Positions 6,442 to 55,368 of a DNA stretch of 64,000 nt are shown piece by piece; position 1 is the stretch's first letter; each line of letters opens with the position of its first letter. This DNA comes from a virus (lineage: Duplodnaviria > Caudoviricetes). The translations under genes and the position numbers were made by a program. Below the pieces are notes generated by a model that worked only from the letters and a program-made list of their open reading frames with translations, was not told where the DNA came from and searched no databases. The stretch lies in IMG/VR virus record IMGVR_UViG_3300047283_000054; one strand, written 5' to 3'.

Positions 6442-6451
6442 AGATACTTAC

Positions 6452-8766: not shown

Positions 8767-8867
8767 TTATAGATAAATGGATCACGTTTACGTAGTTCTT
8801 TAATACGCTTGCGGTAGCGTATCTCTGCTCTAATCGTATGATATAAATTTTTAATCCACTTGAACAT
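8763..8867 (-). CDS. 34-aa basic peptide ending DPFIYK
   Basis: Below the track cutoff: MFKWIKNLYHTIRAEIRYRKRIKELRKRDPFIYK*. GAGGAG Shine-Dalgarno; fills the gap and overlaps both neighbours. Confidence 0.75.
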   Translation of the reverse strand: MFKWIKNLYHTIRAEIRYRKRIKELRKRDPFIYK

Positions 8868-10158
8868 AATCTGGCTCCTCTTTGCTAATAGTATTTATTA
8901 TATCTACAATCTGAGGAAATATTGCTTTCCAGTCTCTATTCCTACGTTTATCTATGTCAGCTAGGAAGTTAGCAAAATCATTAACTTCCTTCTTGTTTGC
9001 AGGAGTAGTTAATAGTTGTTGCTGTATTCCCATTAAATGAGTTTGTAATTTTTCTTTTTCAATAGGGTCGCTATAATTTTCTAATGCTTTGATTGGTGCA
9101 TCAATGAAATGTGCTAAATATTTTCCAAAGTTGTATGGATTGAATGTTGAGGGTCTAACTACAGTGTTCCAATTAATACCAACAGTAGATTTAATTTTGC
9201 GCCATTCATTTGTTTTTTCTATCAACTGGTGTAAGGTGGGCAACGTCAATGCAGTAAGTGTTGCATGAATCAACACACCTACACCCGGAGCATTTAACAA
9301 CGTGGTCATGTTTTGTTCCCATTCAGTTAATATTAATCCATCACGGACATATTCAATCTCAGGACCCCAGCAATCAATACTACATACAAACTCCATGCGT
9401 TTAAGTTTACCTTGATCAATCAAGTTTTGCACACGTTGAATCTTTGCTTTAAACTTTTCAGGATCATGTTTCAAATTACTAAATGAACGGTATACTAAAT
9501 TTGGTCTGGGGTGTCTATCAAAGAAATCTAAACATTGTTCAAATTCTTTTTGATATAGAGGTTCCCCACCTAATACTTGCAATATTTGTACGTGTTCGCT
9601 ATTCTTCTCCATCCATTCCCAAAATTTTTCTTTGTATAATTCATACTTAGAATCAGGGCGCCATGTGCTATAATCTTGGTTAAACTCACTTGGTCCAAAT
9701 TTACGAACTTCTTGTTCAATCTGACTGCTAAAGCCAGGTGTGCAATACACACATGATTGATTGCATACATTATTGAAGTAAACTTCAAGCAATGTGGGAC
9801 TAACACTTAATGGAATATTATCAAACTCATATGCACGTTGCACGTATCCTTCAAACTCAGGTGGCAACAATTCAATCGATTCATTTACAAATCCTGTCCT
9901 ATCGCTTTTACCGCCGGTCTTTTCAACATCTCTGCAATATTCACATCCGTTACCTGGCCATTCCCCACTTGCCATTTTTTCTCTATCAGCGAGCTTACCG
10001 TGATGATTATGAAAATCCATAAAGTTATCCTCAGTCAATCTCCAATGACGACCTCGATGACAACTTGATGTAGTGCCTCTACTTAAAAATAAGGTGCTCC
10101 ATGCCCATTTGTATAAGCAAGCGGCATCATTTTGTATAGGAAATGTTTTTTTTATCAT
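8851..10158 (-). CDS. Radical SAM protein, N-terminal twitch-like module (subfamily A)
   Basis: CNQSCVYC, GGEP; N-terminal CLYKW...SCH...CEYC. Confidence 0.9.
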   Translation of the reverse strand: MIKKTFPIQNDAACLYKWAWSTLFLSRGTTSSCHRGRHWRLTEDNFMDFHNHHGKLADREKMASGEWPGNGCEYCRDVEKTGGKSDRTGFVNESIELLPPEFEGYVQRAYEFDNIPLSVSPTLLEVYFNNVCNQSCVYCTPGFSSQIEQEVRKFGPSEFNQDYSTWRPDSKYELYKEKFWEWMEKNSEHVQILQVLGGEPLYQKEFEQCLDFFDRHPRPNLVYRSFSNLKHDPEKFKAKIQRVQNLIDQGKLKRMEFVCSIDCWGPEIEYVRDGLILTEWEQNMTTLLNAPGVGVLIHATLTALTLPTLHQLIEKTNEWRKIKSTVGINWNTVVRPSTFNPYNFGKYLAHFIDAPIKALENYSDPIEKEKLQTHLMGIQQQLLTTPANKKEVNDFANFLADIDKRRNRDWKAIFPQIVDIINTISKEEPDYVQVD

Positions 10159-10163
10159 ACAGC

Positions 10164-10171
10164 TATTTATA
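10164..10171 (-). promoter_or_regulatory. Putative late promoter TATAAATA inside the enzyme cluster
   Basis: Exact T4 late consensus, 5 nt upstream of the 10158 start. Confidence 0.5.
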
Positions 10172-10925
10172 GAAGGCGTTGTATGAGGGGGATTATTTCT
10201 CTTTCAAAATAAATCAAATGGCCTTTATCATTTACATGATGATCGGGTGCATAACAAGTTTTATTAAAATTATAATCTCCTTTCCCAGAAGAATTATATC
10301 CAGAAAAATCGTATTTAGAGATATGTGGTATTTGAAATTTACCAATGCATAAAAGTTTTTTTAGAAAAGGTGTATTATATGACTGGGTAGGGAGAGACCA
10401 TATAAATTTTAAATTATTTACTGTTGCAAATCCATATGTTGCTAATAATGCAGTCATTGACAGATTATATCCTATGTCATCGTTAAACAAATGTCTTATA
10501 TACATTTTTTTAGCTTTATTATATGGAATTTCATTTTCCATTTGAGAATGATGATCCCATCCCATTACCCAAGGTACTATAACCTCAGGTTTAACTCCTA
10601 AAGCAACTTCTATCCTTGATGGAAAGGTTCCATTAAATATAACAATATCATCTGCACTTAGTGGATGTTCACTATGATATTCTATTAAGTTACGAAACAT
10701 TCCTTGACTACAATTTGCAGGTATTCCTAAATTTATTACTTCTATATTATTAAATTGATGTTGTAACAACGATGCCCAGCAATATGAACTAGGAATATTT
10801 TGCATAAATGGAGTTTCATCCCCTATGAATGTTTTAGTATCATGGTCATAGTAATATTCACGGTCTGAACAACCGTGCCCAAAAGTATAACTATCTCCTA
10901 ATACTATTACTTTATGTTTCTGCAT
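10167..10925 (-). CDS. SGNH/GDSL-like hydrolase or acyltransferase
   Basis: VLGDSYTFGHG, NLGIPANC and DHHVNDKGH. Confidence 0.7.
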   Translation of the reverse strand: MQKHKVIVLGDSYTFGHGCSDREYYYDHDTKTFIGDETPFMQNIPSSYCWASLLQHQFNNIEVINLGIPANCSQGMFRNLIEYHSEHPLSADDIVIFNGTFPSRIEVALGVKPEVIVPWVMGWDHHSQMENEIPYNKAKKMYIRHLFNDDIGYNLSMTALLATYGFATVNNLKFIWSLPTQSYNTPFLKKLLCIGKFQIPHISKYDFSGYNSSGKGDYNFNKTCYAPDHHVNDKGHLIYFEREIIPLIQRLL

Positions 10926-11653
10926 TCATATCTCTCAGTAATTTCCTTGTCATATCGAAATTCAGTTTGTTTATATAAATCAATAATGTTTTTATCTTGA
11001 CTAAGCAATGATTTAAATATAATCCCGGAAAGTATTGAATTGTTTTCTTTAGAAAGATGACACCATCTATTATCTACCTCACCCATTGACGGTAATTCTT
11101 TTTTACTTACATTAAATAAATTATACAAACAAGCTCCATGCCTTGATTCTAATGATATGGTAGTATTTTTATCTTTTCTATCATCAAACGTAAGTAAGTT
11201 TACAAGTTTGATATTATTACCATAGCACATCATATTTACGTCATTGAATATTTGTTGTTTTATCCAAACATCAAATGGTATTGAAATATTGGGTACATGA
11301 CCGGTTAATATTCTAACCATTTCTAATTCTTGTTGCCTAGATAAATTTTTATTTCTTCTTAACGCATATAACTCATCTGGTGTTGTTAGAAAACTCAAAT
11401 CCTCAAGTCCTTCAGGCAAATGATGTATTCTATGTAATGATGAGTAGCAAAATATGATATGGTCAAACTGTTCTCGGTGAGCTAAAAATTGCTGAAAAGA
11501 GTACCATGTAGAGGACCCTGTTTTACCATACGTAGTTACTTTATGACCAGCGTTCTCCATATCTGCAATCCAAGATTCATCTTCAGTGAAAGGACTTTCT
11601 GGATTGTAGGGATTTCTATCAGCAAAGCTGTCACCAAATATACCTATTCTCAT
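10907..11653 (-). CDS. SGNH/GDSL-like protein
   Basis: IGIFGDSFA, YGKTGSS and C-terminal CHLSKENN (catalytic Asp not evident). Confidence 0.6.
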   Translation of the reverse strand: MRIGIFGDSFADRNPYNPESPFTEDESWIADMENAGHKVTTYGKTGSSTWYSFQQFLAHREQFDHIIFCYSSLHRIHHLPEGLEDLSFLTTPDELYALRRNKNLSRQQELEMVRILTGHVPNISIPFDVWIKQQIFNDVNMMCYGNNIKLVNLLTFDDRKDKNTTISLESRHGACLYNLFNVSKKELPSMGEVDNRWCHLSKENNSILSGIIFKSLLSQDKNIIDLYKQTEFRYDKEITERYECRNIK

Positions 11654-12822
11654 TTTGATACCTCTATCATTTTAGTTTTATATAAATTATCCATAGCAGA
11701 TTTATTACCACATGTTTCTAAACAAAATAATAATTTACCATTTTCAATTGTGTCTGCCTTCCAACCGTCTAAAAAGAATTTAGAAAACTCCGGGCCTTTA
11801 ATTATTTCCAACATAGATTTTTTATTTAAATTAAAAACTTCTAATCCATAATCATTAATCATAGTGTTAAATTGATACCTAGAATAAGAAGAATTAAATT
11901 GACCAAAGACTCCCCCTAAGAAACAACAGGGCAACATATATCCTGTAGCAGAAATATAAACCTCTTGTGATTCTTTTCTCTCAATAGATTTACATGTTAT
12001 AGTAGATGTTTTTTCTAATTCTTTACTAAATTCATTTAGGATTGGAACGCTTTTAATCATACGAGTAAAGTCTACTTTTTCTCCAAAGCTAGGGCCATCT
12101 TTTAAACCTTTGTGATTAGCAGGCCATATTGAATATTCATATTCACCTTCTTTGTTATAGACTGACAAGCCTTTAGCTTTTTCATCATATTCGCCAAACC
12201 CTAATGGATTTTTCACAACAAGTTGAAAATTTAATTCTTTTGCAAGTGCCCGAGCTTCTTCAACTTGATGTTGATTATGTTCAAATATCAGCCATTCCCA
12301 TATAGCATTTGCGCCAGTTGCACTGTATGCTCTCATATTTGCAATTAATTTTTCCCATTTAACACCTCTGCGATATATGTGATTAGTATCTTCAAGCCCA
12401 TCTACACTAAATACCACACCTGCCCTGTTAAATAAGAATTTATCATTTGGATTAAGTTGTTTTGAAAAAAAGTTTCCTAGTTTAGTCCAATAGTCTGCAT
12501 TACGCATTCCGCCGTTAGTTCTAATTTGCTGAACAACATTGGGTGATTGCTCTCTAAAATATTCTATTATCTCTAATAAATCAGGTGCCATTCCAGGATC
12601 GCCTACGTTACCACAAAAATTTATACTTCTAATATTTTTTGCAATTTCTACTGGAACCATTCTTTTTATATCATCAATAGACAGGTCAGTAAGTTCTAAA
12701 TCTTCTGCCACGGGGCCGCCGCTATGATTTCTGCTACATGCAGGACAACTGGCGTTGCATCTACTGGATAATTCAATGTGTAACCTTGTTACACAATTTA
12801 TATCATACATTTGTTCTTCCAT
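11650..12822 (-). CDS. Radical SAM protein with C-terminal SPASM/twitch-like module
   Basis: CNASCPAC near the N-terminus, FCGNVGDP, RTNGG, FSVDG; C-terminal CKS...YISATGYMLPCC...CLETC. Confidence 0.9.
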   Translation of the reverse strand: MEEQMYDINCVTRLHIELSSRCNASCPACSRNHSGGPVAEDLELTDLSIDDIKRMVPVEIAKNIRSINFCGNVGDPGMAPDLLEIIEYFREQSPNVVQQIRTNGGMRNADYWTKLGNFFSKQLNPNDKFLFNRAGVVFSVDGLEDTNHIYRRGVKWEKLIANMRAYSATGANAIWEWLIFEHNQHQVEEARALAKELNFQLVVKNPLGFGEYDEKAKGLSVYNKEGEYEYSIWPANHKGLKDGPSFGEKVDFTRMIKSVPILNEFSKELEKTSTITCKSIERKESQEVYISATGYMLPCCFLGGVFGQFNSSYSRYQFNTMINDYGLEVFNLNKKSMLEIIKGPEFSKFFLDGWKADTIENGKLLFCLETCGNKSAMDNLYKTKMIEVSK

Positions 12823-14075
12823 TATCGTAATCCTATATATTTTGCTAGATTGTCTGGTTTGTTTCTACGTTGTGTATATTGTTCAAAGAATATATCACTG
12901 TCTTTACGTAGTTGCGGTTGTGTTTCTTTAATGAAGCCCTCATCTAAAAACTTAAGTAGTCTAGCACAATGTTCGTGTTCCACTGGTAGTAATTCATCTT
13001 TGATTGACTCGTAAAAATTAGTATACTTGGTAATGTAAAAGTCTCGTTCTTCACGTGTTAAACAAGCAAAGCCTTGAAAGTCCGGCTTATCAACCATGTT
13101 GATTGAGATGTAGGGTTTTACTTTAGAACGATTGCGTATAGCAATAATATCCAAATACATTTGATCAAGTGACTGTAACGCAATTGCACTTACTGTTGTA
13201 CTTACACTAAACTCTCTGACCTTACTATTTGCCAATCGTTCAATGTTCTCTAACCATTCAGTATATATCATGCCCTCACGCACAAATTCGGCAGTCTCTC
13301 CTGCACTTTCATTACTGATATTCATACGCAAGTTGGTCAATCCACTAATCTTATCAAAAAATCTATCCATGATTACTGTCTTTTGGCAGAGGTTGCTGTG
13401 TATCACGCATTCAATGTTCGGGTTTATCTCTGTCATCATCTCAAACACACGAAAGACTTCTTCGTGCATCAGTGGTTCTCCGCCCGAAACACGGATAGAT
13501 TCTAAACTAGTAGCAACACTTTCAAACCATTCCCAAAACAATTTCATGTCGGGCGGATCTATCATCTCATTGAGTTCGTTGATATCTTTTTGATAGTGTC
13601 TGCGGTCATCAGTAATAATACCAGTATAAACACCATTTACTCTAATATCGTTTGTCCAACTTGTACTAAACTGTGGGCTACAATAACTACAAGCTAAGTT
13701 ACATGTATTCTGAAATGCTAACTCTAATGCTTTGGGCTTGAACACATAATTAGGATTCTTGTAGTCGTCTGATGATAAGTGATCCTTAAAGCTTAAACTC
13801 TTACGTGTTCTGTCACTACGCAATCCTAAATTCTCATAACGCCAGCAACTATCGCATGCAGGTGGTTGTTCTCCTGCTAACATTTTCTTTTGTTGTTCAC
13901 GTTTCTCGGCAGGGTTATAGAATGTATCTACTGTATTACCCACTTGAATAAAAGGAGTGTAATGGCAACTGGCAATCTTACCTGAGTAAACCCAGATACT
14001 TGCCTCATGAAATTTTGCAAGACAAAACGTATCGCTTGTCTCATCTCTTATCTTAAATAGTTTCTTCTCGTCCAT
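12822..14075 (-). CDS. Radical SAM protein, N-terminal twitch-like module (subfamily A)
   Basis: CNLACSYC, SGGEP; N-terminal CLAKF...SCH...CDSC. Confidence 0.9.
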   Translation of the reverse strand: MDEKKLFKIRDETSDTFCLAKFHEASIWVYSGKIASCHYTPFIQVGNTVDTFYNPAEKREQQKKMLAGEQPPACDSCWRYENLGLRSDRTRKSLSFKDHLSSDDYKNPNYVFKPKALELAFQNTCNLACSYCSPQFSTSWTNDIRVNGVYTGIITDDRRHYQKDINELNEMIDPPDMKLFWEWFESVATSLESIRVSGGEPLMHEEVFRVFEMMTEINPNIECVIHSNLCQKTVIMDRFFDKISGLTNLRMNISNESAGETAEFVREGMIYTEWLENIERLANSKVREFSVSTTVSAIALQSLDQMYLDIIAIRNRSKVKPYISINMVDKPDFQGFACLTREERDFYITKYTNFYESIKDELLPVEHEHCARLLKFLDEGFIKETQPQLRKDSDIFFEQYTQRRNKPDNLAKYIGLR

Positions 14076-15368
14076 TATTTTTTGGATTTGTTATAATCAA
14101 ATTCAATATTCAATTCATTGTGTGTCAAATAATTCTTTATGTTTATGTGTTCTGGGTACACCTTAAAGAAACTTTGGTCACGAATTTCATCCAGTTTAGT
14201 AGTAATTTTATTAAATTCTTTCAAACTCTCATTGATCCCATTGTAATATTGCCCATTTTTATCCCACATGAATTTAATTGCTGTCTCATACATACTTATG
14301 ATTCCGAAAGTCGGGTCTAAAGATTTTAACCAGTCAATATTCTTCTGCAATTCTTTTTCAATCTCTGTTTTTTTCCAATCTGGAATATTTTTCAGACAGT
14401 AATAGGGCGGAGTATCTAACGGATTAACCATCATGTGTTCAGGCTTGAGATATCCCAAATCTACCCATTCTCTATGAAACTCTGCTAAGTTAAACGCATT
14501 AGGCCAACTTAATGTGTATGAAATCATAAAATGTACGTGAGGACATTCTTTCATCATTTGTTTACGATTCTCTACAACTTGCTTCCAATCTATACCATTA
14601 CGCCAGTACTCACCCTTTTCATGGCTACCGTCTAAGCTTGCATATACGTGTACGTTGCTGAACTTCTTCCAATATTCGAGTACATTGTCGTATTTTTTTA
14701 GTTTAAAATTACTGAAGTTTGTGTTGTAACGAATCTCTAAGTCAGTATTACCAAATTCAATCAATTTGTTAAGAACTTCGTAGTGTTCTTTTTGCATCAA
14801 TGGTTCACCACCTGCAAAGTAAATCATCTTTGCTGTTGCTAGGTGAGGGATAATTTCTTCTAATGCTTGACCTTCAGTTTTACCCGGGAACTGATAACCA
14901 TCATCTTTATCTCGTCTTTCGGCCAAGTTATATAACTTACGATGATCCATTACCCAACTAGTGCTAAAGTGAGGGGCACAACTACGACAACTTAAGTTGC
15001 ATAGGTTATTATACCTAACATCAATATAATATAGCTTGTGTTCATCTAATGATCCGTCTGTATTGGTACTTTCTACAATTTTTTGAATTTCTTCATCTTC
15101 ATCAAAAAACATTCTATTGTATTCGTTCTTGTGTGCATGTCCCAATCCAGCACGACGGTTACATATACTGCAACTAGGTTCTTCTATTCCATTTAAGAAA
15201 TTTAGTCGCATTTGCTTTGTTTTATCGTTATTCCAAATTTCTGCCAATGTGTTTTCTTTAAGACTTCCAATCTCGTCTTTATTATCATAAACACAGCATG
15301 GTTTAACATCGCCGGCAAAATGTTTTGCTACTCTTTGCCATTTCAACTGGGTTAAAGTTATTACTCAT
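14075..15368 (-). pseudogene. Radical SAM gene (subfamily B) with a 5' microdeletion/frameshift
   Basis: The ATG at 15368 gives MSNNFNPVEMAKSSKTFC-RRC* (stop 15305-15303). The body AGDVKPCC...CNLSCRSC...AGGEP is in another frame (track ORF 14075-15346). The xxPWxHQYVxP segment seen in paralogue 17872-19173 is missing at the junction. Confidence 0.75.
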
Positions 15369-16677
15369 TTGTTAAATATTCTTTAAATTTTGAATCTAAG
15401 TAAGGAAATACCTCACTAAATTTTTCTTTTCTGATATTATCAAGTAAGTTTGTCTCTACATAAAATCTTGATAGCTGTTTACTCTCATCTTCGCTGTTCA
15501 TAAACAGCATTGCATCTTTCCAATGTGCAATAGTAACATCATAATTAAAATCATGTTCTTGTGTTTCTGATAACCATTCAATATGTTTATTAATCTTTTC
15601 GGTAACTTCTAATTTTACGTTTGGTGGTAAAATTTTAGTACGTAATTGAGGTGGGGAATGTAATGTGTTTAGATAAAATCCAAAAGTTCTACCATCCGGT
15701 CTTTTAAATACATCACTCTCACACATATATCTATGTAAATCAATTGATCCATAACAATTTAATAAGCTGAATACTGCGCTAACTCCATAGTCGGCTTTGG
15801 GCAAATATTGTTTAGCAGTTTCTATCCATTTTTTAGCAAGTTCCCAATCAAAACCTTTACGTATATATTCTCCTTCAGTACCCATGGCATCAATACTACC
15901 CACAATGAACACATTATCAAAATGCTGTAGCATTTCAAACGCATTATAGTCTTTTAAAGTATAAACTGTGAGGTTGGTATTATATCGTATTTTTGTCTGT
16001 GTTTTACCTCGTTCAACCAATAGTTTTAAAAACAAATAGTGTTCTTCTTGCATCATTGGTTCGCCACCACTAAAATGTATTTCTGTGTAGGGATCAATCA
16101 TATCAATAAGATAGTCTAAATCATCCTGCATATGTAATACACCATCATTGGTTATTAATGACGTTGGATTAATCTGATATCTACCTAACTTAATCTGATC
16201 CGGTATCCATCCGGTACTTAGTCCTGGGCCACATGACCTGCATTTTAAATTGCATAGATTATTGAAAATCAAGTCAATCGTACCTAGTTTAATATTTTCA
16301 ACTGACCCGTCGATATTGGTATATCTAATGATATCTTTTAACTTATTATATCCATTTTGATTTGTGTAGTCGGGGAAATCAGAATATCTCTCATTGAATC
16401 TTTGTCGCATACTTGTCGATCCTGAATCTTCTTCTTTCCAACAACGGGTACAAGTCTCTGGCTTTTTACCATCTAAAAAATCTTTTCTAAGTTGATTCCA
16501 TTTTTTGCTATTAAATATATCAACTAATTTTTCTTTATTCCAGTTACCTAAATCATGCTTTGCATCAAAGCTGTAATAACAACACGGGAACACTTTACCA
16601 TTTGGCTCAGTGTGAATTTGTAACCAGGGTACACTGCAAAAATGTTCTGGTAAATCTTCAATTTTTTTATCTAACAT
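15361..16677 (-). CDS. Radical SAM protein, N-terminal twitch-like module (subfamily B)
   Basis: CSVPW...GKVFPCC...CTRC; CNLKCRSC; SGGEP. Confidence 0.9.
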   Translation of the reverse strand: MLDKKIEDLPEHFCSVPWLQIHTEPNGKVFPCCYYSFDAKHDLGNWNKEKLVDIFNSKKWNQLRKDFLDGKKPETCTRCWKEEDSGSTSMRQRFNERYSDFPDYTNQNGYNKLKDIIRYTNIDGSVENIKLGTIDLIFNNLCNLKCRSCGPGLSTGWIPDQIKLGRYQINPTSLITNDGVLHMQDDLDYLIDMIDPYTEIHFSGGEPMMQEEHYLFLKLLVERGKTQTKIRYNTNLTVYTLKDYNAFEMLQHFDNVFIVGSIDAMGTEGEYIRKGFDWELAKKWIETAKQYLPKADYGVSAVFSLLNCYGSIDLHRYMCESDVFKRPDGRTFGFYLNTLHSPPQLRTKILPPNVKLEVTEKINKHIEWLSETQEHDFNYDVTIAHWKDAMLFMNSEDESKQLSRFYVETNLLDNIRKEKFSEVFPYLDSKFKEYLTNE

Positions 16678-17869: not shown

Positions 17870-17871
17870 TA

Positions 17872-21601: not shown

Positions 21602-22785
21602 AGTATTTCTTTTAATTCTGGTATATAATCTTTATAGTCTAACCCACGTGCGTTGTCAACTGCTATTATAAACTCTTTTGCTTTCTTTAGCAAGTCGGGT
21701 TGGTACGGTTCATGTAGTTTATTTAATAAATCTTTGCGTTGCCATTCATGTAATCTATTTGCATAATGACTACGTAGTTCTTCTTTATAGAAATCGGGTA
21801 ATGTTGCAAGACTTAAATAGTCCGGGTACAATACATAGTTATGATGTGGGGTCTTGTTATAGTTTGTTTCTAACCAATTACCAAACTCTGCAAGATGGTA
21901 TATATTTAAAATGCTAACAGTCTGTGTTACATGCCAATTTAAGTTTGGCAACTTGGTCAGTTTCTCAATGCTTGCAACTGTCTCTTCCCATTGTGTAGGA
22001 TAACGAATATAATAATTGCGATGACCCAAATCATCAATACTTGCGTTAACAGTAACCTGTTTGAATTCTTTCCATAACTCAACCAATCTGTCAGGTATAT
22101 CCATCATGTTTAAACTATAAACAAGATGTACGTTCTGTGATGTACCTAATGTAATTAAGTGCTTTAAGTATTCAAAGTGAGCCTTAATCAATGTGGGTTC
22201 GCCACCGTTGATATAGATTTCTTCTACATTTTGACTCTTGTTTGCTAAATCCCAGTAGAAATCTTCATTCTCAAACCACTTGAAGTTTTCCATTGCTCGT
22301 AACTTAAACCAAGGCAAATCATTAGCAATCTTCTTCTCATCAGGATACCACTTAGTACTGCTATAACTATTACATGTTAGGCAGGCATTGTTGCACACAT
22401 TACCCAAACGTAGCTCTACATATATTAAATTAATGTCTTTTAGTTTTGCTGATTTTTCAAGTTTAGGGATAATGTGTGCCCAACGCTCATTCTCATATTG
22501 ACGCTTGCTTTTGATACCAGCATCTTCGTCACGCCAGCAACCTTCACACTCAACAGGACGTTTGCCATCAATCATTGCTTGTCTAACTTCAACAAACTTT
22601 TCACTGTTCATTATATCTTCTACACTATCGTCATCTAACATGACAAGATTTTGTGTATTAGATTTCTTTGCCCAACTAATCGCATCTGTATGATTGCTAC
22701 GGCAACAGAGGCTTGCGCCTCCATTTGGATGTGTTGCTAAGTGCATCCAGGGTAATACACATAATGTATCACTGGTGTTTTGCAT
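21598..22785 (-). CDS. Radical SAM protein, N-terminal twitch-like module (subfamily B)
   Basis: CVLPWMH...LCC...CEGC; CNNACLTC; NGGEP. Start placed at MQNTSDTLC (22785) by comparison with paralogues. Confidence 0.88.
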   Translation of the reverse strand: MQNTSDTLCVLPWMHLATHPNGGASLCCRSNHTDAISWAKKSNTQNLVMLDDDSVEDIMNSEKFVEVRQAMIDGKRPVECEGCWRDEDAGIKSKRQYENERWAHIIPKLEKSAKLKDINLIYVELRLGNVCNNACLTCNSYSSTKWYPDEKKIANDLPWFKLRAMENFKWFENEDFYWDLANKSQNVEEIYINGGEPTLIKAHFEYLKHLITLGTSQNVHLVYSLNMMDIPDRLVELWKEFKQVTVNASIDDLGHRNYYIRYPTQWEETVASIEKLTKLPNLNWHVTQTVSILNIYHLAEFGNWLETNYNKTPHHNYVLYPDYLSLATLPDFYKEELRSHYANRLHEWQRKDLLNKLHEPYQPDLLKKAKEFIIAVDNARGLDYKDYIPELKEIL

Positions 22786-23467
22786 ATTGAACTTTACCCG
22801 GTACGTATGGATTTTCAACTCCATTAAATTGATGCATTAGTTTTCCATTAACACTGTCATCGTGCGTTAGAATGTAATTATATGTTTGGTCAAACGTTTG
22901 CTTATATAAATCTGGTTTATCGTATAAGAAATAAGGGCACATACAACTAAAAGTAATTTCTTTTGTTCTACATCTTGCCATAGTTGATATTAAATGCATG
23001 GCATATGATTTAGCACCGGGGTAGCCTACTCCCTCTGGGTAAAATTCACGTTCATATTGCAATGCCATAGCAGTACCCATATATAATACTTTACTACCAT
23101 TAATTAAATTGTTGTACAACGATGCAATAATTAGATGAGGAATAGTTACTGCTCTATCTATTGAATGGTGGTATTCAACAGGATTTGGTTCGTTGAATAA
23201 CTGGTTTGTTGAACTTGGATATCCTGATCCATTCTGATTAAACAATATAATATCAATTACTGGTAATTCATTAGCTAATTCCACGCACTTACTTTTTACT
23301 TGTTTAGTATCATCATATTTGATATATCTATCATCTATGTGATTAGTTTTATGATCCTTATGCGAAAAAACTATTACACGATTACCGTCATCTCTTGCTT
23401 TAGTTACAAACTGATTTCCAAATTTACCGGGTATTCCGGCTCCTACTACTAAAATATTTTTACTCAT
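22769..23467 (-). CDS. Short-chain dehydrogenase/reductase (SDR)-like protein
   Basis: N-terminal Rossmann-like ILVVGAGIPGKFG, IDIILFNQNG and YPGAK (YxxxK). Confidence 0.7.
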   Translation of the reverse strand: MSKNILVVGAGIPGKFGNQFVTKARDDGNRVIVFSHKDHKTNHIDDRYIKYDDTKQVKSKCVELANELPVIDIILFNQNGSGYPSSTNQLFNEPNPVEYHHSIDRAVTIPHLIIASLYNNLINGSKVLYMGTAMALQYEREFYPEGVGYPGAKSYAMHLISTMARCRTKEITFSCMCPYFLYDKPDLYKQTFDQTYNYILTHDDSVNGKLMHQFNGVENPYVPGKVQYAKHQ

Positions 23468-24710
23468 TTATGTACCCTTTCATGTTGTTGTGTTCTGGAA
23501 AATAATCTAAAAAATCTTTTCCTCTAATTTTATCAAGTATCCTATTTTTTTTGAATGAGTCTGGATTAATAATATTACTGGATGCTGTCATCATAAAAGA
23601 TTTTATATTTTTCATATTGTTTATTACGTCAGTTGCTCCGGGCATACTATTAGTATCATATTGTTTCATATATGTAATAAACTCATCAATTACCATTGAT
23701 ATTTCTTCTTTTTTAAAGTCTGGCAATGATTGCAAAGAGAATTCTCCTGAATCTTCTAAACACCAAATAGTCGTATTGCCACCAAAAGAAAGGCGTTCGT
23801 TTAAAAGAATTTTAACTAACTCTATATAACTGTAAATATTTACCCAAGATATTACGCTATGGATAGAATATTGTACTTTACTTCCGGGTAGGGCAAAACT
23901 ACTATTTTCTTTAATTTTTTTTATGTTGTTAAATAATTCTTCCCAATTAGTTCCGTCTCTCCAATACTCTGCTCGACGACCTTCAGCATCAATACTCATC
24001 TGAACATGAACCCCTTTAAAATGTTTCCAATAATCAAATACTGAATTATTTTTATATGATAGTTTACTTGTGTTGGTAGAATATATAAGACTAACATTCT
24101 TTGCAGTGTTAGAATCAACAAAATATTTCAAAATATCCCAATGTTCTTCTTGCATCATAGGCTCACCACCGGCAAAATAAATATGCTTTACGTGTTCATA
24201 ATGTTTTTCTACTTCGGAGATAATGTTTTTATTATGATAAAGACTCTTATTAGATATTTGGTAATAGGATTGCAACTCAGGATTTTTAATATTTTCAACT
24301 GCAACACTACTACTAAACATGGGGTTGCAGGATCTACATTTAAAATTGCATAGATTATTAAATCTTATATCTAAATATGTTAATTTAAAATTATTAAGAG
24401 AGCCATCGTCATTGGTTATAGATTTCATTTCTTCAACGGGTGCAGTCATTCTAAGAGTAGAAGTTTGTCGCATTGATTTAAAACCCATATCTTCTTTTTT
24501 ATAACAATTAGAACACAATTCATTCTTTACGTCTGATAGCATATCTAAACGTAGTTGTTTCATTTTATCTGAGTTCCATGCTTTTTCTAAAGTTATTTCT
24601 CCATAATTACCTATGGGTTTACCTATACAGCATGGAGCTATTTTACCATTTGGTCCTACATAAATATGTGACCAAGGTAGTGGGCAGTAGGCAGAATTGA
24701 TATCACTCAT
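23460..24710 (-). CDS. Radical SAM protein, N-terminal twitch-like module (subfamily B)
   Basis: CPLPWSH...GKIAPCC...CSNC; CNFKCRSC; AGGEP. Confidence 0.9.
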   Translation of the reverse strand: MSDINSAYCPLPWSHIYVGPNGKIAPCCIGKPIGNYGEITLEKAWNSDKMKQLRLDMLSDVKNELCSNCYKKEDMGFKSMRQTSTLRMTAPVEEMKSITNDDGSLNNFKLTYLDIRFNNLCNFKCRSCNPMFSSSVAVENIKNPELQSYYQISNKSLYHNKNIISEVEKHYEHVKHIYFAGGEPMMQEEHWDILKYFVDSNTAKNVSLIYSTNTSKLSYKNNSVFDYWKHFKGVHVQMSIDAEGRRAEYWRDGTNWEELFNNIKKIKENSSFALPGSKVQYSIHSVISWVNIYSYIELVKILLNERLSFGGNTTIWCLEDSGEFSLQSLPDFKKEEISMVIDEFITYMKQYDTNSMPGATDVINNMKNIKSFMMTASSNIINPDSFKKNRILDKIRGKDFLDYFPEHNNMKGYINE

Positions 24711-26110
24711 TGTATATTATCCCACCATGTTAATAATTTAGGGTTTTGACTATATATGTTACGCATTGTGACTTTTTCATCACCGCGAATTTTTTCTAAA
24801 TGTTCAACCCAACGTTTGCCATTCAATCTTGCAGTTTTATACTTATCAGGCCATTCTTCTTCATGCGTTTTGCGGCTGTCTTTTAATGCCTGTAAATTGC
24901 CAATAAAACTACGTTGTTTCCAAGTAGCACGTGATTTGCAATATAAAAGTATATCATCTACCATTTCATTTAGTATTTCACGTGGCCAACTGGTTGGACT
25001 CCACATGATATCTGGATGAAATGCAAATGTAATCTTTGTAATAATTTCAACATCTAACTCAATGCTCAAATCAAACAACTCTTTTAATGAGAACATTCCC
25101 GGGGCTGTAATAGTTAAGTCTAACTTCATTTTGTCTTTGCCACCGGGCAATGCCAATCCTTGTTTAAAATTTTCTAACCATTTGTCCCATTTGATTCCAG
25201 TACGAATGTATTCTACAATATCACCTGTACCATCAATACTTGCACACATCATCCAATCTTTATAGTGTGGTAGATAGTCATATAAGTTTTTCTGACCAAA
25301 TTGAACACGACTTAAATTGCTATTATAACGCATATAACAATTCTTAGCAGAACCATTTTTTAACATTTCTTCTAATGTCCACCAATGCACATCATACATC
25401 AATGGTTCTCCACCAACCCAATACATTTCTTCAACAATACCGCGACTTACTGCATCACGAAACTCTGGTTCAACTACAGTTTGTTGAAAGTCTTGCATCG
25501 CAGATTTAATTTCAGGAATCATAAAAGGTTGATTTTTAGGAGTCCACATGTTATTAATCTTTTTTTCAGTTTCCCATGTTGAACTCAATTGTTCACCACA
25601 CATGCGACACTTAAAGTTACATAGATTGCTGAAACGGTAGTCAAAACTTATTGGCTCCATTGAAGTAAATCCAGTATCGTCTGTGGTATCAAATGCTTGT
25701 TGAATTTTATCTTTAAACAATACACCAGTGAACCATCCACGATAGCTTTCACCCTCCATCAATAAGTTTTTATTACACACATCACATTGAGGTATCTCTT
25801 CTCCTCGCATTAGTTTTACACGAATATCTTTCATGTACTCACTATTCCAATGTTCTTTTAAACTTATAGGTTGATAGTCATCTAATGCTGTTTTGCTTTC
25901 AGTTACAGTACCATACTTTGAATCGTTACTACTATCAATGTATTGCTTCTGGAAAGAATGTTCTTCACGTGATGCACAACACATCCTACGTTCGCTTTGC
26001 GGGCTAATGTAAGTATGTGTCCACGGTGCCATACAAAATACTTTGTTTGGACTGTCAGGGTGGGGTTTTGCATCTGTACCCCATATTGGTATTATTTTAT
26101 TAGTATCCAT
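24707..26110 (-). CDS. Radical SAM protein, N-terminal twitch-like module (subfamily B)
   Basis: CMAPWTH...MCC...CDVC; CNFKCRMC; VGGEP. Confidence 0.9.
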   Translation of the reverse strand: MDTNKIIPIWGTDAKPHPDSPNKVFCMAPWTHTYISPQSERRMCCASREEHSFQKQYIDSSNDSKYGTVTESKTALDDYQPISLKEHWNSEYMKDIRVKLMRGEEIPQCDVCNKNLLMEGESYRGWFTGVLFKDKIQQAFDTTDDTGFTSMEPISFDYRFSNLCNFKCRMCGEQLSSTWETEKKINNMWTPKNQPFMIPEIKSAMQDFQQTVVEPEFRDAVSRGIVEEMYWVGGEPLMYDVHWWTLEEMLKNGSAKNCYMRYNSNLSRVQFGQKNLYDYLPHYKDWMMCASIDGTGDIVEYIRTGIKWDKWLENFKQGLALPGGKDKMKLDLTITAPGMFSLKELFDLSIELDVEIITKITFAFHPDIMWSPTSWPREILNEMVDDILLYCKSRATWKQRSFIGNLQALKDSRKTHEEEWPDKYKTARLNGKRWVEHLEKIRGDEKVTMRNIYSQNPKLLTWWDNIQ

Positions 26111-27260
26111 ATTCTTTTGCTAATTCTTGGTATTCAGGAAACACATCTATAAATGATTGATTTCTACGGAGATCAACTTCTTTGAGTGACTTAAAGGCTA
26201 ACGGTAGTAAGAGTGTTTTATCGGCTGAATTCATATAATCAATTATATATTTACATTTAGAAGTTGTACTTAGTAGAGGAATACTTTCTAAATATTCTTT
26301 TGCTTTTTTCTTTATGTTTGCTGGTAGATTTTGAATCGAGAATTTGGGTTCCCACATTGCATTAAAGTTAAATTCAAAATTACCGTTATTTATTTTTTTA
26401 ATCTCATCTAATAATTCACCAATTCTAAATAAAGTAGGCCAAGCTAAAGTGATTATATAAAGAATATCTACGTTATTTGATTTATTTTTTATATCCCTAA
26501 TATTATTCGCAATAGTATCCCAATCGGCACCTGATCCGGGGCGCCAATAATCAACTGCTGAACCAGAAACGTCTAAACTTACTCTATATAAAATTTTATT
26601 AAAATGCTTCCATTTTTCAGTAATATGTGTTCCCTTAAAGGTGATGTTACTGCCATTACTATAATATAATAGGTCAATCTTTTTGTTGTTAGCAATAAGA
26701 TGGTCTAAAAACTCCCAATGCTGCCAATGTAACATTGGTTCGCCTCCGCTAAAAGTAACAGCTTCTAACTCATCGGTGTATTGTTTAATTTCATTTAACA
26801 CAAAATCTTCTGTAGGGCCGGCGAATTTTAATATAGGGCCATTGTATCTACCGTATGTTTTTTCTTCACTTGCTATTGCAGAACTTACACTACTATAGCA
26901 TATCCTACATTTGCAATTGCATAAGTTAGAAAATCGAACTTCAACGTGTTGTATTTTTGTTTTTTCGTAAATACTTTTATCAGGAAATCTTTGTAAAATT
27001 CCCGAGCGCATTGAATGAAATCCAATATCCTCGTATTTATAGCATCGCTCATTGCAATATCCTGTAGTCCTAACTTCATTTATCATATCAGTTTTGATTT
27101 GTGATAGTGGTTTAGAATTTAGATATTCTGTTACGGAAACTGCGGACACTAACGGATTAAGCGAACACGGCCCCATTCTATTCGTCATATCATAATATAA
27201 TGAATTGAAGGGATAGGGGCACTTAACTGTTTGCGTATGATCCGTAAGATACTCACTCAT
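26100..27260 (-). CDS. Radical SAM protein, N-terminal twitch-like module (divergent subfamily B)
   Basis: CPYPF...GPCS...CNERC; CNCKCRIC; SGGEP. Confidence 0.88.
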   Translation of the reverse strand: MSEYLTDHTQTVKCPYPFNSLYYDMTNRMGPCSLNPLVSAVSVTEYLNSKPLSQIKTDMINEVRTTGYCNERCYKYEDIGFHSMRSGILQRFPDKSIYEKTKIQHVEVRFSNLCNCKCRICYSSVSSAIASEEKTYGRYNGPILKFAGPTEDFVLNEIKQYTDELEAVTFSGGEPMLHWQHWEFLDHLIANNKKIDLLYYSNGSNITFKGTHITEKWKHFNKILYRVSLDVSGSAVDYWRPGSGADWDTIANNIRDIKNKSNNVDILYIITLAWPTLFRIGELLDEIKKINNGNFEFNFNAMWEPKFSIQNLPANIKKKAKEYLESIPLLSTTSKCKYIIDYMNSADKTLLLPLAFKSLKEVDLRRNQSFIDVFPEYQELAKEYGY

Positions 27261-28783
27261 TGTAAATCTGGGTTGACAAACACATCTTTACTTGGATCCT
27301 CTGGTGGATGATCTGGTATTAAATCAACACCCTGACGATAATTTTGTGTGTTAATTTCCTCTGCAGTGGGTAGCTCTGTTTGAATACTATCATAGAATGC
27401 GACAAACTCTGGTGGGAAAGTATTACGGAAATTTTTACCACGACGGACATCATACTGGGCATAGAACTGTTTGAAGTCTCTACGATTCTGTTCAATGTCT
27501 TTAACATTCTTGTGCGGTGTCTTAATAACGTCAAGGTAATCAATCAATCGTTGAGTCTGTTCTCGCTCAATACTCATAAGCATTTGTTTACCATCAGTAG
27601 TACGGAAATCCATAGCAATTTGATTATCTAACCATACTTGCAATTGGTCTTTATACTTTTGACGAATCTCTGTTGGTAACATAGCACAAGATTGAAAGCT
27701 AGGGAAACGCAATATGTTTAAGCTCATTGTAGGATAAACTGTATTATGAATCTTTTTGAATTCCATCATCTGATCCATGAATTGAACAATACTTGCCAAA
27801 CATAAACTATTGATAGTCATCATCATGTGAGTCTTTTTGATGTTGCCTTCAGTATGTAATCTACCTAAGTTATGAATCCATTTGTTCCAATCGAATCCAT
27901 CACGAATATATTCAGCATGAGCACCAAACGCTTCACAACTTGTGTATACTTCCATATATGGAACAAAGTGACTATACTCAATCAACTTGTCCATAATCTC
28001 ATCTTTAGGAACTAAGTTACTATTAATTGCATAACGCAACACTTTGCCATCTGGACGATTAGTAGCACGTTCTTGGTTGTTACGGAACCATTCAAACAAC
28101 TTCCATACGCCCGGGGCCATTAATGGCTCACCACCTGTAATGCGAATTTCTTCTAAGTTGTCTGCAAGACCATCTTCCCACCAACGCCAGAACGCTTGAC
28201 TGTATGGGTTGATTTCATCTGGTAATGGTTTAGCATGGTCAGCTTCGTTAATAAAGTGACTACGTGCGTCACCATCGATATTACGATAAGGACCAAACTT
28301 ATGAATATCTTTAACCCATGTTGTACTGAAACTTGGGTTGCAATAACTACAAGCAAAGTTACATGTACGGTCAAAAGAGATTTCTAATGTTTTTAACATT
28401 GTATTCTCTTGCCAATCTGCTTTAGCAGTATGTAGGATATGTTCTTCTTCAAACACAGCAGTTTTATAAACACGGTCACTCATGTTATCACGACCAATAT
28501 CTTCAATCTTCCAGCAGTATTCACACTCTTGCGGACGTTTACCTTCTTGCATTAACTTACGCATATACTTCTTATGCGGAGTATTGTGAATTGCGGATGG
28601 ATTAGTGAGTAACTCTGCCGCATCAATTTGATGACCCAATGGGTGGTGACAACTTGTTGTTTGTCCGTTGCCTAACCAGATAGTAGCGTTAAGCCATTTA
28701 GCGGCACAATAACTGTCGCTAATAGGATCGATAAGTCTTGCTTTATATTGTGCGAATGATTCTTCGTGTTTCTTGCCTGCCAT
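27257..28783 (-). CDS. Radical SAM protein, N-terminal twitch-like module (subfamily A)
   Basis: CAAKW...SCHHP...CEYC; CNFACSYC; TGGEP. Confidence 0.9.
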   Translation of the reverse strand: MAGKKHEESFAQYKARLIDPISDSYCAAKWLNATIWLGNGQTTSCHHPLGHQIDAAELLTNPSAIHNTPHKKYMRKLMQEGKRPQECEYCWKIEDIGRDNMSDRVYKTAVFEEEHILHTAKADWQENTMLKTLEISFDRTCNFACSYCNPSFSTTWVKDIHKFGPYRNIDGDARSHFINEADHAKPLPDEINPYSQAFWRWWEDGLADNLEEIRITGGEPLMAPGVWKLFEWFRNNQERATNRPDGKVLRYAINSNLVPKDEIMDKLIEYSHFVPYMEVYTSCEAFGAHAEYIRDGFDWNKWIHNLGRLHTEGNIKKTHMMMTINSLCLASIVQFMDQMMEFKKIHNTVYPTMSLNILRFPSFQSCAMLPTEIRQKYKDQLQVWLDNQIAMDFRTTDGKQMLMSIEREQTQRLIDYLDVIKTPHKNVKDIEQNRRDFKQFYAQYDVRRGKNFRNTFPPEFVAFYDSIQTELPTAEEINTQNYRQGVDLIPDHPPEDPSKDVFVNPDLQ

Positions 28784-28791
28784 TTTATTCC

Positions 28792-30360
28792 TTAATGTTT
28801 AGTGTGCGATTTGATACATTCTCTCCAGTAACTCTTTAGTTCCGGAAACGTTTCCATAAAATTCGTTTGCCTGCGTCTATCATATTCAGTGATGAACATG
28901 TAGAAGTTCTTCTTATTTAGTAATAGTTGCTCTTGGGGTAGAGATTCTTTCATTATAGCAAGGTCTCGCTTGATTTTCAATAGCTCATATGGTTTAAATC
29001 CCTCAAATGTTTCCAAATAGTCGTCACCCTGTACATTATCTTCCATGTACTTTAAGCAACGTTCTACTTCATCGATACCATATTGTCCTGCATTTTGAAT
29101 ACTGAACCAAGGAGGGTATCTTAGTATTGGAATGTCAAAGAATACACGTTGGTATTTCTTTTGGGTATAGACTTTGTGAACAATGTCGTTCTCTTTTTCT
29201 GTTTCTGTTTGTTCTGGTGCAATCTCAAATTCAACTTGACTACGACCACCAAACTCTGCTCTTAACTCTAATACCATTTCTAAGAACTTATGTAAGCTAG
29301 GAATAGACATGATGTTAAACGTATTAATAAAGCTAACAGTACTATACTTTGTTTCACGTAAAAAGGTTCTTACATTATTAAGCATACGTTCAAACTCTAA
29401 GCCAGTACGCATATATTCAGCTTGTTCACCGAATCCATCTAATGATACAAATAACCAAAAGTGTTTGAATCCTTTATCTACATACCAATGATTGCCACTG
29501 AACTCATTAAAGTTTTCTTTATCTTCGTATGTACGTAGTTCTTCAATTGCTTTAACTTTCTCAATAAACTTGTCAAACAACTTCTGGTCGGGAGGACACA
29601 TATTGCTTGTGATAGATAACTCAAGTTGGCCGTGAGGATTCTCATTCACGTAGTCAAGTACTTTGAATGTGTTCTTGTCCATGAGTGGCTCACCACCTGT
29701 CATTCTGAATACACGTAGTTTGCGATAGATTTCAGGAAACCATTGCCAGAATGCTTCAACATAAGGATTGTCTTTGTTTGCAACCTTAAGTGGCATCATC
29801 CCTTTTTGTTCTAATGCCTCTAAGTTATTATGTATCATTCCGGTTAATTGATAACCACCGTGCTTCTTAACTTCTTCTTCCCAACTACTGGAAAGATGTG
29901 GACTACAATACATACATTTAAAGTTACATGCTTGATTGAAATTGACTTCTACGTATCGAGGGACAACATCATAGTCAAATTTATTTTGAGTAACTTCTTC
30001 AAACGTAGGTGCATTCCACCACTCACTACTGCGATAGTGTCTATCACTCATATGACCTTTAGGATCATCACTTATAGCATCTTCTACTTTCCAGCAGTAA
30101 CTACAACCTTCTGGTCGTTTGCCTTCAAGCATTTGTTTACGTTCGTGTATTTTGATGGGAGTATTATGTAAAGCACTAGGTTGTAATTTTAATAAGTCCA
30201 AGGGGATTTTGTGTGTGGGTGGGTGGTAACAACTCTGTGTCAATCCACTAGGTAAGTGAATTGATACTTGTTGCCATTTAGCAAGACACAAAGATGGGCT
30301 GACCGCATTTAAGCGGTCACGCATATCACGGGCAAACTGGTCGTACTCGCCGCTCATCAC
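28792..30360 (-). CDS. Radical SAM protein, N-terminal twitch-like module (subfamily A)
   Basis: CLAKW...SCYHPP...CSYC; CNFKCMYC; TGGEP. Confidence 0.9.
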   Translation of the reverse strand: MMSGEYDQFARDMRDRLNAVSPSLCLAKWQQVSIHLPSGLTQSCYHPPTHKIPLDLLKLQPSALHNTPIKIHERKQMLEGKRPEGCSYCWKVEDAISDDPKGHMSDRHYRSSEWWNAPTFEEVTQNKFDYDVVPRYVEVNFNQACNFKCMYCSPHLSSSWEEEVKKHGGYQLTGMIHNNLEALEQKGMMPLKVANKDNPYVEAFWQWFPEIYRKLRVFRMTGGEPLMDKNTFKVLDYVNENPHGQLELSITSNMCPPDQKLFDKFIEKVKAIEELRTYEDKENFNEFSGNHWYVDKGFKHFWLFVSLDGFGEQAEYMRTGLEFERMLNNVRTFLRETKYSTVSFINTFNIMSIPSLHKFLEMVLELRAEFGGRSQVEFEIAPEQTETEKENDIVHKVYTQKKYQRVFFDIPILRYPPWFSIQNAGQYGIDEVERCLKYMEDNVQGDDYLETFEGFKPYELLKIKRDLAIMKESLPQEQLLLNKKNFYMFITEYDRRRQTNFMETFPELKSYWRECIKSHTKH

Positions 30361-55360: not shown

Positions 55361-55368
55361 TACTTATC
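55361..55368 (-). promoter_or_regulatory. Putative late promoter variant GATAAGTA
   Basis: Overlaps the gp6-like stop codon, about 21 nt upstream of the giant gene. Confidence 0.5.

Follow-up and report, generated by a model that had tools for sequence, protein, structure and literature searches.

A tandem array of radical SAM enzymes with N-terminal twitch modules in the tail-fibre region of a jumbo myophage and its possible role in glycan tailoring

The subject of this analysis is a 64,000-nucleotide stretch of viral DNA (IMG/VR record IMGVR_UViG_3300047283_000054; the window, in the following, is this stretch at its full length) and, within it, an array of radical S-adenosylmethionine (SAM) genes. 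The window is a single long, co-oriented minus-strand block of a tailed phage. Between positions 8851 and 30360, a motif count over the open reading frames (ORFs) yielded 15 ORFs with a CxxxCxxC motif, every one of them on the minus strand. In 14 of the 15, the motif lies at residues 90-164 and is preceded by a cysteine module, which in the numbering of the product of 15361-16677 (o15361) has the form C14 ... C32/C33 ... C76xxC79. The exception is ORF 11650-12822, whose CxxxCxxC motif lies at residue 22 and whose extra cysteines are C-terminal, at residues 277, 299, 300, 367, and 371. These positions agree with an earlier note, made from the sequence alone, which had counted 15 CxxxCxxC proteins and placed the auxiliary cysteines before the core in 14 of them.

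All 14 copies with the N-terminal module matched the NCBIfam family NF033640 (N_Twi_rSAM, twitch domain-containing radical SAM protein) with 178.3-352.4 bits, the curated cut-off being 170 bits. Because the 14 copies match end to end (model positions from ~1-48 to 385-398) and above the cut-off, the similarity is taken to be homology and not chance. ORF 11650-12822 scored 52.3 bits on the same model, its core being closest to the core of that family, and was classed as a non-member. NF033640 is defined by the order of an N-terminal twitch followed by the radical SAM core. The architecture is thus already catalogued, in a family without assigned function, and the inverted domain order that the earlier note had stressed is real in 14 copies but not novel. 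Added to NF033640 here are an array of 14 copies in a jumbo phage, the subfamilies into which they fall, the orthology that links them to bacterial arrays, and a glycan context. The Pfam domain SPASM (PF13186) scored above its gathering threshold at the N-terminus (residues ~1-113) of the seven copies of clade B described below and at residues 284-350 of 11650-12822. The shared C-terminal DxxR...FP motif, likewise pointed out earlier, was found to be real: among 63 family members R416 was invariant and D413 and P425 were at least 90% conserved. In the same alignment, four Arg positions of the family are either invariant or conserved to at least 90%.

The best scores of the array proteins on MoaA, NrdG, and viperin were 37, 26, and 34 bits, compared with cut-offs of 284, 131, and 180 bits, respectively, and all array scores on the NCBIfam equivalogs for peptide maturases were far below the respective cut-offs. 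Because all of these cut-offs were missed, the array proteins are set apart from MoaA and NrdG, a kinship that had been named as telling against the proposal. Peptide-recognition domains of the type found in RRE (recognition element of RiPPs, i.e. peptides synthesized ribosomally and modified post-translationally) and PqqD were absent from the array proteins (Pfam, E <= 0.01), their N-terminus being the twitch itself.

A maximum likelihood tree of 86 family members was calculated with SH-aLRT (Shimodaira-Hasegawa-like approximate likelihood ratio test) supports, and it recovered the groups A, B, and C that had been drawn by eye. Clade A (SH-aLRT 99) contained 28792-30360 (522 aa, GTG start; 286.7 bits on NF033640; 52% identical to a gene in the bacterial chromosome locus L018), 27257-28783 (508 aa; 297.5 bits; 48% identical to two Bdellovibrionota genes in genome G029), 20315-21601 (428 aa; 284.3 bits; a core member, 79-96% identical in relatives), 12822-14075 (417 aa; 239.4 bits; a core member, 83-98% identical in relatives), and 8851-10158 (435 aa; 233.1 bits). 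Clade C (SH-aLRT 100) consisted of 19170-20324 (384 aa; 185.4 bits), which has a compact twitch with cysteines 9, 28, 29, 56, and 59, and 16667-17869 (400 aa; 178.3 bits). The remaining seven array copies make up group B: 26100-27260 (386 aa; 248.9 bits), a variable cassette that only some relatives have; 24707-26110 (467 aa; 305.7 bits), a core member with 81-98% identity in relatives; 23460-24710 (416 aa; 339.3 bits; N-terminal SPASM match of 48 bits), a variable cassette with 58-62% identity in close relatives; 21598-22824 (408 aa; 344.1 bits), a core member; 17872-19173 (433 aa; 345.3 bits; SPASM at residues 14-79); 15361-16677 (438 aa; 352.4 bits), the modelled representative; and 14075-15368, the coding sequence of which is broken and whose 14075-15346 portion is the tree sister of 17872-19173. 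ORF 11650-12822 encodes 390 aa, and its C-terminal SPASM/twitch-like module scored 27.5 bits on SPASM. Relatives of this protein at 25-33% identity sit in or beside N_Twi loci (27-33% in Bdellovibrionota arrays and 25% on the contig L017).

The 14075 copy, which the earlier note had listed as a member of subfamily B, indeed belongs to this clade, but its ORF is not intact. A DNA alignment with three intact orthologues (436-443 aa) revealed a 35-nt deletion, which leaves a 21-codon stub (15303-15368) and a 423-codon remainder (14075-15346). The stub holds the first twitch cysteine, which is lost from the remainder. The damage was seen in this window only, and the remainder is still 95.6% identical to the intact L001 orthologue; the lesion looks recent.

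The nature of the N-terminal module was addressed with a profile of 63 family members (alignment A2), which matched the twitch of BtrN through its own N-terminal positions 12-81 with an E-value of 2.5e-7. Together with the PF13186 matches of seven copies, this speaks against the case, likewise raised in the earlier note, of an N-terminal module that is not SPASM/twitch-like, and the module is judged to be a genuine SPASM/twitch homologue. Clades A and C have no PF13186 match of their own and are tied to SPASM/twitch only through NF033640 and the alignment. The AlphaFold2 (AF2) model of 15361-16677 (predicted local distance difference test score, pLDDT, 95.1) has a beta-hairpin at residues 20-30, between C14 and C32/33, followed by helices that bear C76xxC79; this predicted secondary structure fits a twitch module. 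The partial barrel begins at residue 133, and a C-terminal domain of four to five helices (residues 352-437) bears the DxxR...FP motif. Fold searches with the model gave core-level matches and no full-length template. BlsE was the top match with Z 13.4, and SkfB, CteB, SuiB, viperin, MoaA, and anSME came next with Z 12-12.7.

Throughout clades A, B, and C, no variation was seen at C76, C79, and the core's three cysteines, and conservation of C14 and C32/33 is at least 90% (alignments A1 and A2). Four cysteines at twitch-like spacing are thus retained in all three clades. The single cysteine of clade A fits the canonical G-x4-C position, and the second cysteine of the CC pair in clades B and C is surplus. 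The idea that subfamily A ligates its auxiliary cluster differently is not borne out, since the three clades share the same four positions. A second [4Fe-4S] cluster is predicted on the four twitch cysteines. In BtrN, the auxiliary cluster is held by four cysteines and has been proposed as acceptor of the electron of the substrate radical, and in MoaA three cysteines leave an open iron that binds the substrate (PMC9012708). Because a cluster with four cysteines corresponds to the BtrN state, two-electron oxidations are weakly favoured by analogy as the chemistry of the family.

Known systems resemble the array in different ways. The 2-deoxy-scyllo-inosamine dehydrogenase BtrN (PDB 4M7T) has a twitch with one four-cysteine auxiliary cluster, as predicted for the array proteins; it acts on a sugar-like cyclitol in a step that adjoins that of a DegT-family aminotransferase. 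It differs in that its twitch is C-terminal and the protein has only ~250 aa, whereas array members combine an N-terminal twitch with the helical DxxR...FP domain; overall identity is negligible. The cytosylglucuronate decarboxylase BlsE (PDB 7VOB) is a twitch-type enzyme acting on a sugar and gave the best structural match of the core, over 221 residues, but only the core aligns (model residues 111-402), and the match does not fix the substrate class because peptide maturases, viperin, and MoaA lie within ~1.5 Z units. anSME, SkfB, CteB, and SuiB have the core fold and a SPASM-type cysteine module in common with the array, and 11650-12822 keeps their conventional domain order. These enzymes bind peptides or proteins, often via an RRE, and usually carry two auxiliary clusters, whereas the array proteins have one four-cysteine module and no RRE. 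In LipA and MiaB/RimO, an auxiliary [4Fe-4S] cluster is encoded ahead of the core. Their structures align with the model from residues ~11-31 onward, but their N-terminal cluster domains are not homologous to SPASM/twitch and act as sulfur donors. Reviews present SPASM/twitch modules as C-terminal extensions (PMC9012708).

The copies of the array are only 19-32% identical to each other. Several have their own orthologues in Bdellovibrionota or other bacteria (48% identity for 24707 and 27257, 39% for 21598, and 34-52% for 28792; those of 24707 and 21598 are likewise in G029), and each of these groups with its bacterial counterpart in the tree. By their low mutual identity the copies are judged to be ancient and, because several group with bacterial orthologues of their own, not to be born of duplication inside this phage. 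Syntenic arrays were found in at least 8 IMG/VR contigs, including a 352-kb record rated 100% complete (G156, the genome behind locus L002). Among these arrays, the core set of 28792, 27257, 24707, 21598, 20315, and 12822 is 71-98% identical, and the 14075 copy is present in all of them with 61-96% identity. In contrast to this core, 26100, 23460, 19170, 17872, 16667, 8851, 11650, and the small accessory genes are variously present, absent, or replaced among relatives. Because cassettes are gained, lost, or replaced, the number of family copies per related ~350-kb phage varies from 8 to 14. Orthologue pairs gave dN/dS values of 0.02-0.21, indicating purifying selection; the values are rough, dS between the window and L002 being saturated. 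With the low mutual identity, the separate bacterial orthologues, and the purifying selection, it is plausible, as had been suggested, that position or substrate differs from one paralogue to the next.

As the earlier note had assumed, the source element is a phage, and its baseplate genes (PHROG and tblastn matches) mark it as a Rak2/121Q-like jumbo myophage. A gp6-like baseplate wedge gene (55364-58735) was identified together with genes for a gp25-like protein, a gp5-like hub, and a virion protein. At ~31-33% identity, Serratia phage BF, the Erwinia pEa_SNUABM phages, Agrobacterium phage Atu_ph07, and Sinorhizobium phage Phosso, which are Rak2/121Q-type jumbo myophages of 350-490 kb, are the best relatives. 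The baseplate genes are followed by a 6258-aa ORF, a fibre-like protein with a Peptidase_G2 autoproteolytic domain, and then the radical SAM region, 3' of which lie a carbamoyltransferase gene, a gene for a 1355-aa repeat protein, and pstS (915-2018; PstS-type phosphate-binding protein, Pfam/PHROG-level match). The array genes are tightly packed and co-oriented with the late structural genes. Promoter and terminator scans of the region gave no more sites than shuffled sequence and no convincing terminator between the array and the structural genes. We place the array within the late structural operon of a ~350-kb Rak2/121Q-like marine myophage, in its tail-fibre (host-recognition) section. Megablast of the array against cultured phages returned zero matches, and tblastn returned only four distant records, annotated as hypothetical or generic radical SAM proteins. 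In the host-recognition cluster of pelagimyophages, variable "radical SAM cassettes" and glycosyltransferases lie beside tail fibres (PMC7029224), and the cassette turnover beside tail fibres seen here matches that arrangement; the report on these marine myophages names neither the family nor its architecture. A single hydrophobic segment, around residue 4298, was noted in the 6258-aa ORF (36563-55339, minus strand), which separates the wedge gene from the fibre-like genes.

The expansion is not specific to phages, the same multi-copy arrays being found on Bdellovibrionota chromosomes: NF033640 members occur in 31 of 151 Bdellovibrionota genomes, at most 11 in any one genome, and frequently stand in tandem on complete chromosomes. 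An unclassified bacterial metagenome-assembled genome (MAG) of 2.7 Mb has ~20 copies above the cut-off, and a 1.2-Mb MAG labelled Pacearchaeota has ~11; these two counts are limited by the possible presence of phage contigs in MAG bins. A HMMER scan of 1.84 billion cluster representatives (50% identity clusters) returned 8,713 at E <= 1e-30. No score above the cut-off was obtained in 14 well-known control genomes. For the contig L017, labelled Pacearchaeota, a cellular origin is uncertain; a clamp-loader-like gene and ClpB are nearby. Synteny with the phage was also seen on the 183-kb contig L016 (NZ_JBBAKG010000001.1; label MAG: Haliscomenobacter sp.), which carries fibre-like genes, glycosyltransferase-like genes, five radical SAM genes of the family, a carbamoyltransferase gene, and a gene homologous to that of the 1355-aa protein. 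The contig probably stems from a phage and ended up in a bacterial MAG through binning; because of the synteny it was rejected as bacterial evidence.

Members of the family were also found fused to each other. Among the 150 best database representatives, 30 join two complete N_Twi units seamlessly and without an internal start codon, and the fused units often come from different sub-branches. One fusion joins a 28792-like to a 27257-like unit in this order, mirroring neighbours in the window. Provided that the gene models are sound, such fusions lend indirect, Rosetta-stone support to the paralogues working together, and to this extent the suggestion of hetero-oligomers gains backing as a physical coupling. 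The two-unit proteins (P0122, P0128, P0130, P0139, and ~26 others) have ~800-1100 aa, and the pairing of an o17872-like unit with an o21598-like unit is recurrent; a word-based search gave no fusion above 915 aa. In some family members, TPR-like repeats are the fusion partner. Two candidates were not retained. A 230-aa fusion partner in P0234 was dropped as a GT2 domain since no comparison supported it, and a 716-aa "fusion" in G029 was rejected as an informative domain fusion, being a partial family copy joined to a full one.

Genes of glycan type accompany the array. At its 3' end, and kept there in relatives, lies a gene for a NodU/CmcH-type carbamoyltransferase (6452-7975, minus strand, 507 aa; Pfam Carbam_trans_C 8.6e-49 and Carbam_trans_N 2e-34). 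Upstream of the array, 30357-31310 (minus strand) encodes a probable glycosyltransferase (GT)-like protein of the GT-A fold (317 aa) with an invariant DGDN motif. In a Foldseek search with its AF2 model (pLDDT 72.5), the top nine matches and nearly all of the best were GT-A enzymes, with weak E-values of 1.5e-3 to 2e-2 and a few other nucleotide-binding folds lower down; an enzyme glycosylating the capsid of the virus PBCV-1 was among these weak matches. Neither Pfam nor PDB gave a sequence match for this protein, and homologues of it are located within a Bdellovibrionota array. A paralogous pair of tentatively GT8-like proteins (31620-33193, minus strand; 257 and 267 aa, 25% mutual identity) has DxD-like and FH..K motifs and marginal glycogenin matches (E ~0.9). 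The 1355-aa repeat protein at the operon end (2374-6441, minus strand) gave no Pfam or PHROG match; its residues 1134-1289 are 26% identical (BLAST) to the product of 30357-31310.

Further small genes, all on the minus strand, are interspersed. A tentatively SDR-like (short-chain dehydrogenase/reductase) oxidoreductase of 232 aa (22769-23467) has conserved GGGxxGxxG and YxxxK motifs (alignment A7) and weak profile matches to SDRs of the glucose 1-dehydrogenase type (E 0.04), but no Pfam match. Two proteins are tentatively SGNH/GDSL-like: one of 248 aa (10907-11653) with an invariant GDS block near the N-terminus (A6) and no Pfam match, and one of 252 aa (10167-10925) with invariant GDS and DxxH blocks (A5) and a weak PDB match to a GDSL protein (E 0.42). 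A 274-aa protein (7942-8766), tentatively SGNH-like, has invariant GCS and DxxH-type blocks (A8) and no Pfam or PDB match. A basic 34-aa peptide ending in DPFIYK (8763-8867) is conserved in six related loci. Irrespective of which radical SAM gene comes before, its place is in every case immediately upstream of the genes for the SGNH-like protein and the carbamoyltransferase; it probably belongs with the carbamoyltransferase and is less likely to be a precursor peptide. Searches of the PDB by sequence and by profile brought no convincing match for 30357-31310, 7942-8766, 10167-10925, 22769-23467, the GT8-like pair, the A11 family, and L025:5226-5909.

A comparable context is found outside this phage lineage. 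In L008, from a second, different myophage lineage, two fusions of GT7 with Laminin_G_3 and a GT2 gene lie directly upstream of six N_Twi genes, and a tail sheath gene is located downstream. For the bacteria, a tally was made of 27 loci and the 129 genes at most two genes away from a family member. It contained 15 other radical SAM genes (five with SPASM), 9 GT2, 3 GT1, 5 DegT sugar aminotransferase, 2 GDSL, and 2 genes with the fibre-chaperone domain Peptidase_S74. One chromosomal Bdellovibrionota array is further accompanied by a kinase-like gene, a nucleotidyltransferase gene, three GDSL genes, and a GT2 gene. Recurrence in three independent settings, i.e. this lineage, the L008 lineage, and the Bdellovibrionota/bacterial loci, points to a glycan context.

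The following observations concern the same neighbourhoods. The fusions in L008 (2422-5243) are two adjacent proteins, each with a galactosyltransferase-like GT7 and a ConA-like lectin (Laminin_G_3) domain. In G156, a DegT gene lies directly upstream of two non-NF033640 radical SAM genes (97538-99917; open frames of 330 and 334 aa), a layout resembling DesI/DesII or BtrS/BtrN. BtrS/BtrN of butirosin biosynthesis is a precedent for a DegT enzyme paired with a twitch radical SAM enzyme. In other phage lineages, an unannotated family of ~300-440 aa occurs among the radical SAM genes (L016:5042-6100, 7445-8599, 13122-14024, and 17890-20186; L011:762-1904, 4451-5779, and 6381-7409) and was once found fused to an N_Twi unit (N-terminus of P0266). 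Its conserved block F.TEKT.KP....HPFI..G is tentatively likened to motifs of GT10-type fucosyltransferases; Pfam and PDB gave no match for it.

On balance, and by a narrow preponderance, we favour the interpretation that the locus is a cytoplasmic glycan-tailoring cluster within the host-recognition module, in which each paralogue would perform a radical step of its own on a sugar, probably an oxidative one. Its starting points are the assignment to NF033640, the cluster motifs, the copies' age and orthology, the cassette turnover, and the glycan-type neighbourhoods described above; from these we infer a sugar substrate, a BtrN-like oxidation, one position per paralogue, and a virion target. 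In each enzyme, the [4Fe-4S]-SAM site would give rise to a 5'-deoxyadenosyl radical that would abstract a hydrogen at a specific sugar carbon; the sugar would be nucleotide-linked or already part of a chain. The auxiliary [4Fe-4S] cluster of the twitch would most likely take up the substrate radical's electron, in line with the proposal for BtrN, so that the net chemistry would be a two-electron oxidation, e.g. of an alcohol to a ketone, or a cross-link. Each paralogue would have its own position or its own sugar to act on, and the products may be handed to the SDR-like reductase, the SGNH-like acyl-handling proteins, the carbamoyltransferase, and the glycosyltransferase-like proteins nearby. 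The finished glycan would most likely decorate a virion protein such as a fibre. No membrane segments were predicted in the phage cluster proteins, and the cluster encodes no flippase, polymerase, or lipid-carrier transferase. For this reason the product would be formed in the cytoplasm, the place of virion assembly, and would stay there; a virion protein is therefore favoured as acceptor over an exported host polysaccharide.

Several points weigh against this interpretation. All of the functional evidence is by genomic association, and the tally of neighbours lacks a formal background for comparison. The SGNH-like, SDR-like, and GT8-like assignments are motifs or weak matches, and the GT-A call comes from a medium-confidence model with E-values no better than 1.5e-3. 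One bacterial array of seven copies (L018) has no glycosyltransferase nearby, and a sugar-activating nucleotidyltransferase was not found in the complete relative G156. Literature on N-terminal twitch/SPASM proteins, jumbo-phage radical SAM enzymes, and Bdellovibrio radical SAM enzymes yielded no characterization of NF033640. In addition, SPASM/twitch enzymes are most often peptide/RiPP or protein maturases (PMC9012708), and the array proteins have secondary, weaker NCBIfam matches to the maturases StsB, DynA, PapB, and CefB.

The last two points suit an alternative that we regard as unlikely, in which the enzymes are peptide or protein maturases that act directly on residues of phage structural proteins (cross-links, epimerizations, or oxidations), the glycosyltransferases forming a separate decoration step. 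Tail fibres, the 6258-aa protein, and the 1355-aa repeat protein would be candidate substrates. SkfB, CteB, and SuiB tie with BlsE in the fold search; the array lies just 3' of fibre-like genes with the Peptidase_G2 domain; Peptidase_S74 occurs in two of the 129 bacterial neighbours; and the TPR-like fusions of some family members can be read in the same sense. The array proteins lack, however, an RRE/PqqD-type domain, and no gene for a precursor-like peptide was found, the sole small ORF tracking the carbamoyltransferase and not the radical SAM genes. The neighbours, moreover, are rich in glycosyltransferases and sugar aminotransferases, not in proteases, transporters, or peptides.

If a glycan is the substrate, it might be made or edited on the host cell surface (O-antigen, capsule, or S-layer glycan), thereby blocking superinfection or altering recognition, and the virion would not be the target. 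Such a role has been proposed for the glycosyltransferases of the pelagimyophage host-recognition cluster (PMC7029224), and a cell-surface product would be natural for the homologous arrays on bacterial chromosomes. The phage cluster, in contrast, lacks the membrane protein, flippase, polymerase, and lipid-carrier transferase functions named above, and the array shares orientation and tight packing with the late structural genes, with no convincing terminator between them; we consider this version slightly less probable than maturation of a structural protein. Least probable in our estimation is a nucleotide, DNA, or diffusible small-molecule target, such as an aminoglycoside-like or nucleoside metabolite or a hypermodified base, with the sugar genes serving that product. 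NodU/CmcH-type carbamoyltransferases often tailor secondary metabolites, the nearest characterized sugar-acting relatives (BtrN, BlsE, and DesII) work on small-molecule antibiotics, and the four Arg positions conserved in the family could bind phosphates. The cluster is situated, however, in the structural/tail-fibre module and not in the replication module, Pfam and PHROG scans of the window gave no signature of a DNA-modification kinase or a DNA glycosyltransferase, and the same arrays stand beside polysaccharide-type glycosyltransferases in many bacterial chromosomes.

Within the glycan-tailoring interpretation, a bolder version can be formulated, which we put forward as doubtful: neighbouring paralogues might be physically partnered and form an assembly line that serially oxidizes, epimerizes, or cross-links defined carbons of a tail-fibre glycan. 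Were this so, cassette swaps would re-code the surface chemistry that sets host range, and the toolkit would be common to phages, predatory Bdellovibrionota, and some contigs binned with DPANN archaea. NF033640, with more than 8,700 sequence clusters, would then represent unexplored carbohydrate-modifying radical enzymes of organisms that attach to other cells. Sugar-acting radical SAM enzymes are few, and each of them (BtrN, DesII, AprD4, BlsE, and NeoN) came with new chemistry. If the NF033640 enzymes are glycan editors, they would be a new, large branch of carbohydrate biochemistry and a new phage route to diversify the host-facing surface. The phage array is a compact natural test set, in which fourteen diverged enzymes, their likely partners, and a likely acceptor are encoded in one operon and close relatives differ by single cassettes.

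The supply of iron-sulfur (Fe-S) clusters was considered in G156. Flavodoxin, 2Fe-2S ferredoxin, and cysteine desulfurase were not found in this genome. It does encode an IscU/NifU_N scaffold (326247-326615; E 4.6e-53) and two IscA-type carriers (139714-140016 and 275742-276053). With these three genes in a complete relative, the phage lineage appears to supply its own Fe-S demand in part, which tempers, on the Fe-S side, the unusually high Fe-S and SAM cost that the earlier note had foreseen for a phage.

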